Shown piece after piece: positions 16,355 to 21,848 of a stretch of DNA of 32,000 nt. Origin of the DNA: Candidatus Heimdallarchaeota archaeon (GTDB lineage Archaea; Asgardarchaeota; Heimdallarchaeia; Heimdallarchaeales; Heimdallarchaeaceae). The notes under the pieces are model-generated. The model was not told the origin of the DNA. It made no database searches and was given only the letters and a program-made list of their open reading frames with translations. The stretch is taken from assembly GCA_030668875.1 (NCBI GenBank), contig DAOVER010000007.1:1-32000 (forward strand). Direction: 5' to 3'. Every line of letters starts with the position of its first letter. Within the stretch, counting starts at the first letter, position 1. Made by a program: the position numbers and the translations under genes.

Positions 16355-17191
16355 ATGAATACAGCTATTGTAATTGATACTAGTAGAGAGATTCCTGATA
16401 AATGGTACAGTCTCTATAACATTTATCCACTAGGTTATGTTGTCGAAGATAGCTCTGGACAAAAACATATTGAAAGAACACAAATTCAATCTGTTAGAAC
16501 TCCTGAATTAGTTGAATTGGTGTGCAAGGATAGAAAATCTAAGCTCTTAGCTCCTAGCATTAAAGATTTTGTCGAGCTTTATACCTACCTTGCTGAAAAT
16601 TACGATTCTATTGTTAGTTTACATTCTTCGAATATTACTCCAGCTGTTTTCGAAAATGCTTTGGTTGCAAAGAAACTTGTTTCTGAAATTGAAATTGATA
16701 TCATTGATTCTCACACATTTGGTGCTTCTTCAGGTATTTTTGTTGAAGAACTAGCTAAATTTATCATGGAAGCTAAGAATATTAACGAAATTCGTAAGGA
16801 AGCGATCAGCCTAAACAAGCATATAAGTTCAATAATCCTTTCAAAGAACGATCAATTAGACACTATTGGTCTTCGAAAAGGTAGTTGGCACACTGCTTTT
16901 ACATCATCCTTCCGTCCATATGTTATGTATCAAGAACTATATGGTAAATGGGAAACAATCAAACGGGGAAGAAATATCAAATCTTTTGTAAACCAGATAA
17001 TCAAACAAGTAGAGATTGTAAATCGAGCTAAGGAAATTAAAATTGTATATATCACTTACCATGGAACATTATCTAAAAGTGTAAGAAAAATAAAGAGCAT
17101 TGTTTCAAATACAAACATTGTCGAAACGAATCCATCTCTTATTACACATTATCTTCTAGGTGAGAATTATGTTGATGTTGCATTTCTCTGA
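16355..17191 (+). CDS. Divergent DegV/FakB-like protein
   Basis: TAIVIDTS.EIP, SIVSLHSS, IDIIDS.T.G.S.G follow the DegV pattern, and the length (278 aa) is typical. The canonical SG(T/S)Y and H.GPG motifs are altered. Confidence 0.65.
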   Translation: MNTAIVIDTSREIPDKWYSLYNIYPLGYVVEDSSGQKHIERTQIQSVRTPELVELVCKDRKSKLLAPSIKDFVELYTYLAENYDSIVSLHSSNITPAVFENALVAKKLVSEIEIDIIDSHTFGASSGIFVEELAKFIMEAKNINEIRKEAISLNKHISSIILSKNDQLDTIGLRKGSWHTAFTSSFRPYVMYQELYGKWETIKRGRNIKSFVNQIIKQVEIVNRAKEIKIVYITYHGTLSKSVRKIKSIVSNTNIVETNPSLITHYLLGENYVDVAFL

Positions 17192-17194
17192 AAT

Positions 17195-17989
17195 CTACAA
17201 TCGATAAAAATCTTTTACATTTTTAGTTGTTATATAAGCCAAATCTTTCTCTTCAACTTCAAGCATCCTTGCTGCCTTACGACATAGAATTGGTATACTA
17301 GATGGATCATTCTTTTCTCCTTTCTCTAATGAATGAAATGGACTATCTGTTTCAAACATTAAACTATCCAATGCTACAGACTTCAATATTTTTTGAAAGC
17401 TTTTTCTATAAACAGCACTAGTAGGTACAGTAACATACCAAGATAATCTTGATATTTCCTTTGCTTGTTCTTCAGATCCTCCAAAACAATGCATCAAAAC
17501 TTCTTCAGCTCCCATTTCTTTCAAAATAGTAATAGCTTTTTCTTCTGCTGCGCGTGAATGTATAACTATTGGTTTGTCTAATTCCATTGCGAAGCTTATT
17601 AATTCTCTGAAAAGTACTTCTTGTTCCTTTCGCTTATCCTCTTCCTTAACCCAATGAAAATCAAGACCTATCTCCCCTATCGCAACTGTATTATCGACAT
17701 TTTCTAGATGGAACTTCTTAAGTTCTTCAACACTTTCTTTAGTTATTTTTGATGTATCTAACCCAACAGAGAGAAAAACACCTGGTAACTCCTTTGTCTT
17801 GAGACCAAAATCATAGTATTTTGATTCAATTGCACAGTTAATAATGTATTTTACACCACTTGCAACTGCTTTTCCAGCAAGCTTGACTACTTCGTCATAT
17901 TCGAACCATTCTGGAACTAAATGGCAATGTCCATCAGCGTAAATTATCTCGGAGGTTCTTTCGATGTTTATAGTAGCATCTGATTGCAT
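17195..17989 (-). CDS. tatD: TatD family nuclease
   Basis: DGHCH; AIGEIGLDF; IVIHSR; LMHCF; MFETDSP. Confidence 0.95.
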   Translation of the reverse strand: MQSDATINIERTSEIIYADGHCHLVPEWFEYDEVVKLAGKAVASGVKYIINCAIESKYYDFGLKTKELPGVFLSVGLDTSKITKESVEELKKFHLENVDNTVAIGEIGLDFHWVKEEDKRKEQEVLFRELISFAMELDKPIVIHSRAAEEKAITILKEMGAEEVLMHCFGGSEEQAKEISRLSWYVTVPTSAVYRKSFQKILKSVALDSLMFETDSPFHSLEKGEKNDPSSIPILCRKAARMLEVEEKDLAYITTKNVKDFYRL

Positions 17990-18028
17990 TAAATTCCCAA
18001 AATATTAGTGTTTTTTTCCTTTATAAAA

Positions 18029-19003
18029 TTATAGCAAATTTTTTGCAAAAAACTTTAACATCTTGATTCCACGAATCTCTCGATCAAAAGCGTCAACAGA
18101 AGTTAAATTATCCTTTCCAAAAACTGATTCAATATATTTTATGTTTTTCAAATGCTCTTTACGTCTATGAGAACAGTATTGACAATTAGAATTATCAGGG
18201 TTGATCATATTTACAACGACGAAATCGTGTGCAATTGAATGAGAATCTAGTTCCTCAACAAGTCTTTCGGTTTCAAAGATACTCATCATTGTTGGAATCA
18301 TTACTTTAACGAACTGTGTTCTATCCTGATCCATCAGCTGATCTCTTGCTATGAGTACTTTTTCTTTCATAATCTCTAAATTTTCTATAGTATTGTCTTT
18401 TTCTCCTTTTGAACCAAAAAGAGATTTCATCATGGTCATTGCATTAGAAAGAAAAGAACGCATTTTCAACATTCTCCCAAGGAATGAATCAAGGAATTCT
18501 GGAATGTTAAGAAGTCTGAGAGTATGACCTGTAGGTGCTGTGTCGAGAACAATTGTATCATATGAATCATCATCTGCGTACTCAAGAATTTTAGCAAAAG
18601 ATAAAGCTTCATCCATCCCTGGTTGTGGCATAGATTGCATATCTTGTCCCATCCCCTGTAATTCGGATAGTCCAGGAATGTTTGTTAAATTTGCGAAATC
18701 GCTAGAATCCATTGGTTTACCTATAACTTTTGAGATTTCATCTCCGGCGGTTTCAGGATTAATTTCCAATGCATATAGTTCTCCCTTTACTCCTTTAACT
18801 TTTTCAATTTCTCCGCTTGAGAAATCTAAATCGAATGAATCGGAGACACTGTGAGCTGGATCTGTAGAGATGATTAGAACTCTTTTACCATTTTTTGCAA
18901 GAGAAATAGCTAAGGCAGAAGCAACGCTTGTCTTTCCTACACCGCCTTTACCACCAACGAGTATGAATTTTAAATCCATCTCTAAAAGATTTGTAAGTGT
19001 CAT
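18029..19003 (-). CDS. Get3/TRC40-like (ArsA family) single-domain ATPase
   Basis: Deviant Walker A GGKGGVGKT; STDPAHS; switch II DTAPTGH; Met-rich helical insert; ETERL; CQYC motif. Confidence 0.9.
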   Translation of the reverse strand: MTLTNLLEMDLKFILVGGKGGVGKTSVASALAISLAKNGKRVLIISTDPAHSVSDSFDLDFSSGEIEKVKGVKGELYALEINPETAGDEISKVIGKPMDSSDFANLTNIPGLSELQGMGQDMQSMPQPGMDEALSFAKILEYADDDSYDTIVLDTAPTGHTLRLLNIPEFLDSFLGRMLKMRSFLSNAMTMMKSLFGSKGEKDNTIENLEIMKEKVLIARDQLMDQDRTQFVKVMIPTMMSIFETERLVEELDSHSIAHDFVVVNMINPDNSNCQYCSHRRKEHLKNIKYIESVFGKDNLTSVDAFDREIRGIKMLKFFAKNLL

Positions 19004-19025
19004 GGATTTTTCTAAATAATGGCTA

Positions 19026-19033
19026 TATATAAA
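19026..19033 (-). promoter_or_regulatory. Candidate TATA box for a near-leaderless get3-like transcript
   Basis: tttatata on the minus strand, ending 22 nt before the ATG at 19003, preceded by a T-rich tract after the upstream gene. Confidence 0.5.
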
Positions 19034-19071
19034 GGATAAGTTTTAGAAAAAATAGTTAGGGAAGAAATTGA

Positions 19072-19836
19072 TTATCTTCTTTTCCCAATTTTTCTTCTCT
19101 CTTCTCTCTTACTTTTACGTTTTGGGGTAGTTGGAGATCTACGTCTTTTGGATTTGCTTTTATGTACTTTTTGAATAGCATATCTATCAACTAGAATTAT
19201 AGCTCCTAGGACTCCTACTACACCTAAGCAGAAATATAAGCTGTTTAACCATAAATCAGTTTCAAGTACATATTCCTCTGCAACAGCTTCAACTTGGAGA
19301 ATAAATCTCTGAGAACTAGAGAAATATTCGATTCCTGTTCCATTAATGTAAGTTACAGTAGTAGCCTCTAATGTATAATTGCCTTCTAGCTTAGGTTGGA
19401 AGTAATAGAAATAGAATATTGTTGCATTAACATCAACTTGAATATATCTTTGAGTCGTTAAGTTAAGATTTCCTACTGCCCATTCCTCAAAACTAGGATC
19501 AACAGTGGTTAGATTGTAAGCTGATGCGTTACCCACATTAGTAATAGTTACGTTAACTCTTATCCATTCATTTGGTCTAATTAGATGCGAACATACCTCT
19601 ACATTATCATCCTGGATTGGAGTTGCATTGATTGACTTCTCTATAGTCAAAATTGGACGATTTCTTAGAGTGTCATTAACTTGGATTAAATTTGAATTAA
19701 CTGTTGTTTGTTGAAAATCTTCCGCCCTTATTAAGTCCCCAGTAATGGGAGATGTACTTAGTGCTCTTGATACAGGAAGTCCTATGAATAGTAGCGAGAT
19801 GAACAAGACTAAACTAATAGTGATTTTCCTTTGCAT
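19072..19836 (-). CDS. TRAP-beta (SSR2)-like type I membrane glycoprotein (Ig-like luminal domain)
   Basis: Signal peptide; L...KS...V.I.NVG.A.A..L...DPSF...P...G.Y......VTY pattern; nine N-x-S/T sequons; one TM; K/R-rich cytoplasmic tail. Confidence 0.65.
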   Translation of the reverse strand: MQRKITISLVLFISLLFIGLPVSRALSTSPITGDLIRAEDFQQTTVNSNLIQVNDTLRNRPILTIEKSINATPIQDDNVEVCSHLIRPNEWIRVNVTITNVGNASAYNLTTVDPSFEEWAVGNLNLTTQRYIQVDVNATIFYFYYFQPKLEGNYTLEATTVTYINGTGIEYFSSSQRFILQVEAVAEEYVLETDLWLNSLYFCLGVVGVLGAIILVDRYAIQKVHKSKSKRRRSPTTPKRKSKREERRKIGKRR

Positions 19837-20025
19837 TAGATTCGTTCCGTTTAACTTCTAAACATGCTTCATACAGCCAACTTAAATATTTTGCTCTTTG
19901 GTATTTTTCTTGCTTAAAGCAGAATTAGCTCTTTTCATCCTTTCATATCTCTATTGTTTTTTCTAATTATTATATGTGTATATAATCACCAAATCTTTAA
20001 AACAAACCTCACTCTGTTGCACTTT

Positions 20026-20913
20026 ATGACGGTTAAAATTATTTGTGACACAAGTGCAGACTTGAATATACCTAATGATGCTACTCTTTACGAAAAATAT
20101 GATATCGAATGGGTTCCAATGAATATAATGTTCGGAACAACAGAATACAAAGAACTCGTTGATCTAAAACCTTCTGGCTTTTACAAACTCGTCCATGAGT
20201 CTACAGACCATCCTACTACTTCTCAATCTACTCAACATGATTTGCTAGCAGCTTATGAAAAATTTGGTTCCAAATATGATGAAATAATCTCTATTCATAT
20301 ATCAAGTGAACTAAGTGGTGCATATGCTAATGCTCGAATGGCTAATAAGATGTATAAGAATAGGAATCCAGATGGTGCAGAAGTTCATATTTTCGATTCT
20401 AAAAAAGCAAGTGTTCCTTTTGGGTTAGTTGTTATCAAGGCAGCTCAACTTGCCAAGCAAGGTTTAAAAGCTGAGGCTATTATTGAAAAAATTACACATT
20501 TTGTGCAAAACGATGATGTAATGTACTTCACTGTTAAAGACATTAAATGGTTATTTGAGGGTGGAAGGTTAAGTCGTGCAAAATATGTTCTTGGAAAGAT
20601 GCTGAATGTAAATCCAATTCTTACTTTAATTGAAGGAAAAATAGAATCGGCAGCTAAAGGATCAGGACTCACCAAAACACTTGATTTAATGTTAGATATG
20701 GCTTTAGAAAAACTAGACAGAGATGTTGATAATATTACCTTACACTTCGTTGAAGCTGAAACACGTGTCGAAGTTGAAGACTTTATATCACGTATCAAAG
20801 AGAACTATCCTTCAATAAAGATCGGAGAGATTTTCACTCTAGGTGGAACTATTTGTGCCCATACTGGACCTGGAACAATTGTTTTATTAGCTACAAGAAA
20901 TTTTGAATATTAA
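20026..20913 (+). CDS. DegV/FakB family fatty-acid-binding protein
   Basis: VKIICDTSADL; HPTTSQ; ISSELSGAY; FDSK.AS; L..GGRLS; AHTGPG. ATG 20026 is preferred over 19954. Confidence 0.92.
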   Translation: MTVKIICDTSADLNIPNDATLYEKYDIEWVPMNIMFGTTEYKELVDLKPSGFYKLVHESTDHPTTSQSTQHDLLAAYEKFGSKYDEIISIHISSELSGAYANARMANKMYKNRNPDGAEVHIFDSKKASVPFGLVVIKAAQLAKQGLKAEAIIEKITHFVQNDDVMYFTVKDIKWLFEGGRLSRAKYVLGKMLNVNPILTLIEGKIESAAKGSGLTKTLDLMLDMALEKLDRDVDNITLHFVEAETRVEVEDFISRIKENYPSIKIGEIFTLGGTICAHTGPGTIVLLATRNFEY

Positions 20914-20969: not shown

Positions 20970-21848
20970 TTGACTGTAAAAATAATGACTGATAGTGCTG
21001 CTGATATTCCACAAAAATATATCGAGAAATATGATATAAGAACTGTTCCAACTTTAATTCGTTTTGGAGATGAGATTTTTTACGAAAATGTAGACATAAA
21101 CCTTGAACAATTTTATGAAAAATTCTTTAATTCAGAAACCTATCCTCAAACTGCAAATCCAACATTACATCATCAATTTTCCTTATATGAGGAATTGGGG
21201 AAACAGTCGGAGGAAGTTTTGAATATTGTGATATCTTCTGGTATTTCAGGATCTTATAACACTGCTCAGATTGCTAACAGGAATTATAAACGCAGAGTTG
21301 AAAATCCGTCTGATGTCCATATCTATGATTCGAAGTTTGCCACATTTGGAATAGGAATCCTAGCTATTAAAGCTGCGGAAATGGCTAAAGAAGGATATAG
21401 TGTTGAAGAGATAATACCCGTGCTAGACGACTTTAGATCCTCATTACAGATAGGTTTTACTGTTGAGAATCTCAAATATCTTCATCGAGGTGGAAGACTA
21501 AGTTTATCCAAATATTGGGTAGCTAAAATTGCAGATATGAAACCTGTAATTAATTTCATTGATGGAAAAATGGAAGTAATCAAGACAGTGAGAGGACATG
21601 CAAATGCTGTTATTGAATCATTTAATTCAGTTTATGACAAAATGGGAAAACCTCGTACTTTCAATGCATATGTACTGCATGCAAGAAATGAAGAATCAGC
21701 TCAATTAGTTAAAGAGCATATTAAAAATCAAATTCAACCAGAGAATTGGAACATCTCTATAAGAGAGGTTGGAATGACTATCGCAACACATGCTGGACCT
21801 GGGTGCATAGGAATATGTATAGATGCAAAATACAAATTTTTAGGATAA
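20970..21848 (+). CDS. DegV/FakB family fatty-acid-binding protein
   Basis: VKIMTDSAADIP; PQTANP; ISSGISGSY; YDSK; LHRGGRLS; THAGPG. TTG start. Confidence 0.92.
   Translation: MTVKIMTDSAADIPQKYIEKYDIRTVPTLIRFGDEIFYENVDINLEQFYEKFFNSETYPQTANPTLHHQFSLYEELGKQSEEVLNIVISSGISGSYNTAQIANRNYKRRVENPSDVHIYDSKFATFGIGILAIKAAEMAKEGYSVEEIIPVLDDFRSSLQIGFTVENLKYLHRGGRLSLSKYWVAKIADMKPVINFIDGKMEVIKTVRGHANAVIESFNSVYDKMGKPRTFNAYVLHARNEESAQLVKEHIKNQIQPENWNISIREVGMTIATHAGPGCIGICIDAKYKFLG

Follow-up and report, generated by a model that had tools for sequence, protein, structure and literature searches.

TRAP and GET are treated as separate insertion routes at the eukaryotic endoplasmic reticulum (ER), and the actual role of TRAP is poorly understood. 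TRAP-beta/SSR2, as seen in 8B5L (chain v) and 8B6L (chain F), has a signal sequence, one Ig-like beta-sandwich, one transmembrane helix and a basic cytosolic C-terminus, and one study (PMC11186639) places basic residues of that C-terminus in contact with 5.8S rRNA. Get3/TRC40/ASNA1 proteins (3ZQ6, 3UG6; Chlamydomonas ARSA1, 5ZME) contain one ArsA-fold domain with a deviant Walker A motif, a switch II DTAPTGH motif, a Met-rich helical segment for client binding and a CxxC motif for zinc at the dimer. Both proteins are already known in Asgard archaea, and Heimdall-group TRAP-beta homologues are described in three papers (Eme et al. 2023, PMC10307638; Lewis & Hegde 2024, PMC11186639; Carilo et al. 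2024, PMC11417166). Here, we analyze a 32,000-nucleotide stretch of DNA from Candidatus Heimdallarchaeota archaeon (contig DAOVER010000007.1; hereafter the window), one contig of a 3.2-Mb assembly that is 92% complete, in which a gene for a TRAP-beta-like membrane protein is followed on the same strand by genes for a Get3-type ATPase and a TatD-family hydrolase/nuclease. The TRAP-beta-like and Get3 genes adjoin in all 81 assessable loci, which are spread over 10 Asgard families including Heimdall-group families, Wukongarchaeum and Borr/Sifarchaeia. The pair constitutes a previously undescribed conserved arrangement of known components. This linkage is real and old, and gene order suggests that the two proteins may also be functionally coupled.

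The assignment of the first gene's 254-aa product as TRAP-beta-like, with a predicted type I topology, holds by sequence and by structural model. Pfam TRAP_beta (PF05753) scores 38.3 bits against a cut-off of 22.4, and a profile of the orthologues searched against the PDB returns TRAP-beta as its sole significant match (E 1e-8). In an AlphaFold2 model based on an alignment of 21 orthologues (pLDDT 78), an N-terminal hydrophobic, signal-like helix (residues 2-26) is connected by a low-confidence linker to an Ig-like beta-sandwich at about residues 62-182 (nt 19653-19291). The transmembrane helix lies at about residues 196-216 (nt 19251-19189), and the model has one helix spanning residues 193-230 and another, at 243-253, in the cytosolic tail. 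A count of the sequence gives nine N-x-S/T sequons in the ectodomain. Foldseek ranks TRAP-beta chains from ribosome-Sec61-TRAP structures in each of the first five PDB places (8B5L_v, 8B6L_F, 8BTK_TB, 9N9J_6 and 8RJC_6), with E values of 2e-9 to 2e-8 and target TM-scores of 0.61-0.67 (best 8B5L_v, E 2.2e-9, TM 0.67); these matches span both the Ig domain and the transmembrane helix. Sequence motifs around K67 and N100..A106-x-N108 are also shared with the solved TRAP-beta chains. By contrast, identity to those chains is only 14-16%, the window protein carries a 30-residue insert before the Ig domain, and the archaeal protein would sit in the cell membrane rather than in the ER.

Not every search is equally discriminating. 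A wide VIA-align search placed many generic Ig-like domains at Z ~10 and TRAP at just Z 8.5 with a poor rmsd, and this method does not discriminate within the Ig fold. The basis of the assignment is therefore Foldseek together with the sequence profiles. Pfam TRAP_beta also exceeds its cut-off in ~1,300-aa surface proteins of other Asgard families (for example, G147:C1:297052-297366 and G130:C2:222537-222830) and in the Methanosarcina acetivorans control genome, and its matches in other Asgard families are mostly surface proteins of 1,300 aa and 450 aa. Because these large proteins and the methanogen control also score, this Pfam family alone is insufficient for establishing orthology, and it was dropped in favor of a custom profile for detecting the small orthologue. 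Given the generic Ig resemblance and these off-target matches, the case for TRAP-beta is a combined one of size, topology, profile and Foldseek ranking. For other Ig-containing families, scores on the 254-aa protein fall below the cut-offs: BatD (PF13584) reaches 21.1 of 24.1 bits over one partial stretch, and CARDB reaches 14.7 of 22.7 bits.

The length of the cytosolic tail differs among families. After residue 216, the window protein has 38 residues, of which 19 are K/R and 3 are D/E, ending in a basic motif, S-K-K/R-x-x-K-R-K-x-x-K-R-R, that is conserved in the window's own family (f1) and found only there. Alignments (A1, A2) place this long tail in all f1 members; it is absent from the ~190-215-aa orthologues of other families, and in most linked families the tail comprises ~5-12 residues (across other Asgard orthologues, from a few to about a dozen). 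Identity between TRAP-beta-like proteins of different Asgard classes is only 18-28%.

The second gene encodes a single-domain Get3/TRC40 ATPase with a CxxC motif, an assignment that holds on several lines of sequence evidence. Its 324-aa product scores 279.9 bits with Pfam ArsA_ATPase (PF02374) and 271 bits with TIGR00345 (GET3_arsA_TRC40; cut-off 135) over residues 15-323, whereas the ArsA equivalog TIGR04291 reaches 127 bits, far below its cut-off of 650. The best PDB matches are Chlamydomonas ARSA1, archaeal Get3 (3ZQ6, 3UG6), and fungal and human Get3, and these cover the Get3 chains over their full length; the match to Escherichia coli ArsA is much weaker and confined to its N-terminal half. 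E. coli R773 ArsA (1F48) does share the P-loop NTPase fold and the PF02374 family, but it is a tandemly duplicated protein of ~580 aa from ars operons, in contrast to the single domain seen here, and the genes around the window's Get3 encode TRAP-beta-like, TatD and DegV proteins, with no ars genes among them. The CxxC motif is kept in 62 of 63 sampled Asgard Get3 sequences. The window's genome has a single Get3 copy, and Get3 is near-universal in the phylum (353 of 399 genomes). In family f19 (G129-G142), by contrast, a search at E<=1e-40 recovered Get3 from just 3 of 14 genomes, and one at E<=1e-10 recovered it from none of four, two closed genomes (~4.3 and 6.0 Mb) being among the four. Both identities proposed in the sequence-only reading, TRAP-beta-like and Get3-like, therefore survive the reassignments, to BatD and ArsA respectively, that it had named as hazards.

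To place the pair in a wider context, TRAP-beta-like genes were located with the window protein and the custom profile in the 399 genomes of the phylum, 99 loci were taken and Get3 was mapped in each. Relative orientation differs among the linked families, which include tandem (often overlapping), head-to-head and tail-to-tail arrangements. In f1 (28/28), the pair is tandem, and the gap measures 35-114 nt except in one locus, where it is 587 nt. The pair is likewise tandem in two families of the same order, f3 (11/11; gaps of -8 to +45 nt, including several 4- or 8-nt overlaps) and f4 (3/3). In f5, from another order of the class, the genes are head-to-head and mostly 35-280 nt apart (20/20). 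Two further families of the same class are tail-to-tail, f6 (1/1) and f7 (9/9). Tandem pairs recur in f28 (Borrarchaeum/Sifarchaeum; 5/5), in f29 and f32 (other class; 1/1 each) and in f33 (Wukongarchaeum; 2/2). In a genome of ~3,000 genes, a named gene would by chance be an immediate neighbor in ~1/1,500 genomes; recurrence in 10 families thus exceeds chance. The adjacency, which the sequence-only reading feared might be peculiar to one genome, is accordingly a property of many.

Clustering all open reading frames (ORFs) within 4 kb on either side of the loci (1.5 kb for 30 loci) shows that Get3 is the only gene beside TRAP-beta in at least four families, and that TatD and DegV neighbors are confined to f1. 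In both the Get3 tree and the TRAP-beta tree nearly every family forms one clade, and two larger clades, f28+f29 and the unlinked f22+f24+f25, recur in both, as fits vertical co-inheritance with few separations. Linkage state changes at least three times on the Get3 tree, although both trees are unrooted with weak backbones and do not separate gain from loss; with unrooted trees, an origin of the pair in an Asgard ancestor is possible. A TRAP-beta-like gene as conserved neighbor was found reported for no Get3, and in full-text searches and term searches within key papers, the linkage is not mentioned, in keeping with the earlier impression that it was undescribed.

Three side observations concern these loci. 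First, the TRAP-beta-like domain of f7 is the C-terminal part of a ~500-aa protein (L076-L085), and a conserved ORF of ~90 aa, with no Pfam match, lies between its gene and the convergent Get3; f29 and f33 have relatives of this ORF close to the pair, a few genes away (L107:6978-7250:-, L094:571-837:-). Second, a contig binned to an f7 genome (L075; G085:C32:1-5636) has TRAP-beta, Get3 and TatD genes together, its Get3 sharing 95% identity with that of the window; this contig was probably mis-binned and stems from the genus of the window. Finally, a gene for a ribonuclease of the beta-CASP/RMMBL metallo-beta-lactamase fold (445-465 aa) follows Get3 immediately in f29 and with one gene in between in f33 (L094:945-2342:-, L107:5630-6967:+), and clustering adds a relative at the f32 locus.

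How the pair is transcribed appears to depend on the lineage. In the window, the spacer between the two genes contains a run of six T residues and, closer to Get3, a TATA box (Table 1) whose spacing fits a promoter giving a leaderless or short-leader Get3 mRNA. A TTTATATAT-type box (TTTAAATA in other genera) stands ~20 nt before the Get3 start, with a T-rich tract ahead of it, in most of the 28 f1 loci; the spacers of L005 and L019, as extracted, are without a TATA-type box. Promoter function is here deduced from archaeal promoter architecture, and on this basis Get3 very likely has its own promoter in f1, as had been suspected from the window alone. In f3, f4 and f32, by contrast, most pairs overlap or are separated by 20 nt or less (the exceptions being three loci at 39, 45 and 401 nt), with purine-rich stretches ahead of the start codon, and these overlaps and short gaps imply a single transcript. 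Two unusually long TRAP-beta-like/Get3 spacers, 587 nt (L019:2248-2834, G022) and 401 nt (L047:3169-3569, G028), are perhaps mobile-element remnants; an Rfam scan of both and of the L056 locus matched no RNA family.

Table 1 Features of the TRAP-beta-like/Get3/TatD locus. Positions are those of the window unless given as protein residues.
Feature	Position	Strand	Size or remark
TRAP-beta-like type I membrane protein gene	19072..19836	-	254-aa ORF
Cytosolic C-terminal tail of TRAP-beta-like protein	19075..19188	-	residues 217-254; 19 K/R, 3 D/E
TRAP-beta-like/Get3 spacer	19004..19071	-	68 nt
T6 run	19052-19047	-	in the 68-nt spacer
TATA box TTTATATATA	19033-19024	-	ends 20 nt before Get3 ATG
Get3/TRC40-type ATPase gene, single domain	18029..19003	-	324-aa ORF
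P-loop GKGGVGKT	Get3 residues 18-25		
DPAHS	Get3 residues 48-52		
Met-rich segments	Get3 residues 96-205		10 Met
Switch II DTAPTGH	Get3 residues 154-160		
CQYC (CxxC)	Get3 residues 274-277		
Get3/TatD spacer	17990..18028	-	39 nt
TatD-family metal-dependent hydrolase/nuclease gene	17195..17989	-	264-aa ORF
DegV-family (fatty-acid-binding) paralogue	16355-17191	+	
DegV-family paralogue	19954-20913	+	
DegV-family paralogue	20970-21848	+	

The association of the remaining genes with the pair is specific to the window's family. The ORF coordinates agree exactly with the three co-oriented genes and the gaps of 68 and 39 nt that were first read from the sequence, and among the window ORFs the trio is bracketed by three DegV paralogues. 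The two DegV genes upstream adjoin the TRAP-beta-like gene throughout f1 and do not do so beyond it. The third gene of the trio matches Pfam TatD_DNase (PF01026) at 172 bits (cut-off 27) over residues 19-262; its 174 bits with TIGR00010 fall below the cut-off of 206. TatD lies downstream of Get3 in most f1 loci and in no locus of any other family, which supports its status as a family-restricted passenger, a possibility raised at the outset. Within f1, the distance between the Get3 and TatD ORFs ranges from a 1-nt overlap (L039, L040) to a 40-nt gap, spacing that is consistent with co-transcription, and TatD is probably co-transcribed with Get3 there.

We propose, with moderate confidence, that TRAP-beta and Get3 are an anciently linked membrane-protein biogenesis pair, accompanied in f1 by a lineage-specific passenger, whose linkage has been kept for co-ordinated expression or function in insertion. 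Judged by family membership, Get3 would be the only ATPase of the cytosol that picks up C-terminal transmembrane segments and delivers them to the membrane. By homology, the TRAP-beta-like protein most likely serves the SecYEG/ribosome insertion site as an accessory subunit, a single-pass and probably glycosylated surface protein with its Ig-like domain outside the cell. Its extended basic tail in f1 most likely contacts ribosomal RNA; because the eukaryotic basic C-terminus touches rRNA, ribosome contact is the most economical reading of this tail. The two genes would have descended as a pair and stayed adjacent despite local rearrangements, under selection that favors co-ordinating their expression or their function in the insertion of membrane proteins, without any need for direct binding of their products. 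Under this proposal, transcription would differ among lineages. An operon is implied in three families (f3, f4 and f32), and the head-to-head genes of one order (the f5 type) would share a divergent promoter region. In the window's genome the TRAP-beta-like gene would end in the T-tract and Get3, probably with TatD, would start from its own TATA promoter. Both products would act in one process, membrane-protein insertion. The sequence-only reading was bolder, seeing a proto-ER module whose two routes were functionally coupled in an Asgard ancestor; of this, the linkage stands as real and old, and the coupling is what gene order can suggest.

Several observations weigh against our proposal. The genes are unlinked in f24 (0/7) and f25 (0/5), lying on different contigs in the genomes checked, and in f22 both are present and the pair was not seen, although that locus was only partly assessable. 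In two large families, f20 and f31, the 24 Get3 loci of each have other neighbors and are without a small TRAP-beta-like gene nearby. These families indicate that the linkage is dispensable. In addition, a separate Get3 promoter in f1 weakens the case for strict co-expression, and a search of sequencing runs listed no RNA run for the locus, its sole strong matches being four marine-sediment DNA runs from a single study, probably the source of this DNA. Finally, Pfam TRAP_alpha and TRAP-gamma have no match in the window's genome, which is 92% complete. This result does not establish their absence, and a TRAP complex as such would be hypothetical in this organism; the Heimdall TRAP-alpha candidates of PMC11186639 were recovered solely by structure.

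For f20 (L141-L163), the neighbors of Get3 can be described. In ~19 of 24 loci, a gene of 419-434 aa directly precedes Get3 on the same strand (for example, L143:126-1400:+ followed by Get3 at L143:1462-2466:+). The one such gene tested encodes the translation termination factor aRF1/eRF1, and on its other side Get3 is met by a convergent gene for a PP-loop ATPase.

Some of the same observations can be explained by inherited synteny without function, in which the two genes became neighbors once, early in Asgard evolution, and have not yet separated in most lineages. Separation in f24, f25 and apparently f22, the different surroundings of Get3 in f20 and f31, and the apparently separate transcription of the genes in f1 would all be expected on this explanation. 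However, every other neighbor has been replaced at distances where TRAP-beta proteins of different classes have diverged as far as noted above, the pair has outlasted at least three switches between tandem, divergent and convergent order, and it is unusual in archaeal genomes for just one pair to persist neutrally. We therefore regard inertia as unlikely.

A direct partnership would be more specific. Conserved adjacency and overlapping reading frames are a classic signature of interacting proteins, and Get2 captures Get3 through a basic, RERR-containing helix; archaea are not known to have a Get2 homologue. In this scheme, the TRAP-beta-like protein would be a membrane tether or receptor for Get3, like Get2/CAML, with the basic f1 tail (..KREERRK..) binding an acidic Get3 surface and tail-anchored proteins being released at the Sec/TRAP site. 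Immediate adjacency across classes, with overlapping frames in some, is what such a partnership would predict, as are the length, basicity and conserved end motif of the f1 tail. By contrast, the short tails of most linked families give a cytosolic ATPase little to grip, the one family with the long tail is the very one in which Get3 is served by a separate promoter, and the eukaryotic basic tail (PMC11186639) touches rRNA and not Get3. Tethering of Get3 by the tail, in the way of the Get2 helix, is less likely than ribosome contact, and we consider a direct partnership improbable on the whole. A complex prediction for a Get3 dimer with residues 190-254 of the TRAP-beta-like protein gave a score of 0.00, a result without controls that speaks neither for nor against binding. 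Quite doubtful, in our view, is the stronger form in which archaeal Get3 has its missing partner on the membrane side in the TRAP-beta-like protein, a tether at SecYEG/ribosome that receives Get3-client complexes. If it were true, the eukaryotic Sec/TRAP and GET routes would descend from one physically coupled Asgard machine, and the ancestral job of TRAP would include tail-anchor insertion.

Alternatively, the TRAP-beta-like protein could be a preferred substrate of Get3. Its transmembrane helix lies ~10-40 residues from the C-terminus, and in most families fewer than 12 residues follow the transmembrane segment, a geometry resembling that of a tail anchor. Nevertheless, the N-terminal signal-like segment and the glycosylation-rich extracellular domain lead one to expect co-translational targeting by SRP/Sec, and a single, near-universal general factor such as Get3 is not normally linked to one client, making this chaperone-client relationship very unlikely. 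Misassignment, with the first gene encoding a generic BatD/CARDB-type Ig surface protein, the second an arsenite-pump ArsA, and nothing left of an ER-route reading, would draw on the off-target Pfam matches and the many Ig-like domains ranked by VIA-align, but is scarcely credible in view of the subthreshold BatD and CARDB scores, the unique PDB profile match and leading Foldseek ranks of TRAP-beta, the fitting size and topology, and a single-domain, CxxC-bearing Get3 that scores far below the ArsA equivalog cut-off and adjoins no ars genes.

More broadly, when two genes stay adjacent in several Asgard classes although their orientation changes and all their other neighbors are lost, the signal is one that usually marks a functional link. 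The pair offers a concrete hypothesis, that TRAP-beta and Get3 co-operate at the membrane, and it bears on how the protein-insertion apparatus of the eukaryotic ER came to be built from archaeal parts. If the link reflects only co-regulation or inertia, the locus would be an ordinary pair of known genes.

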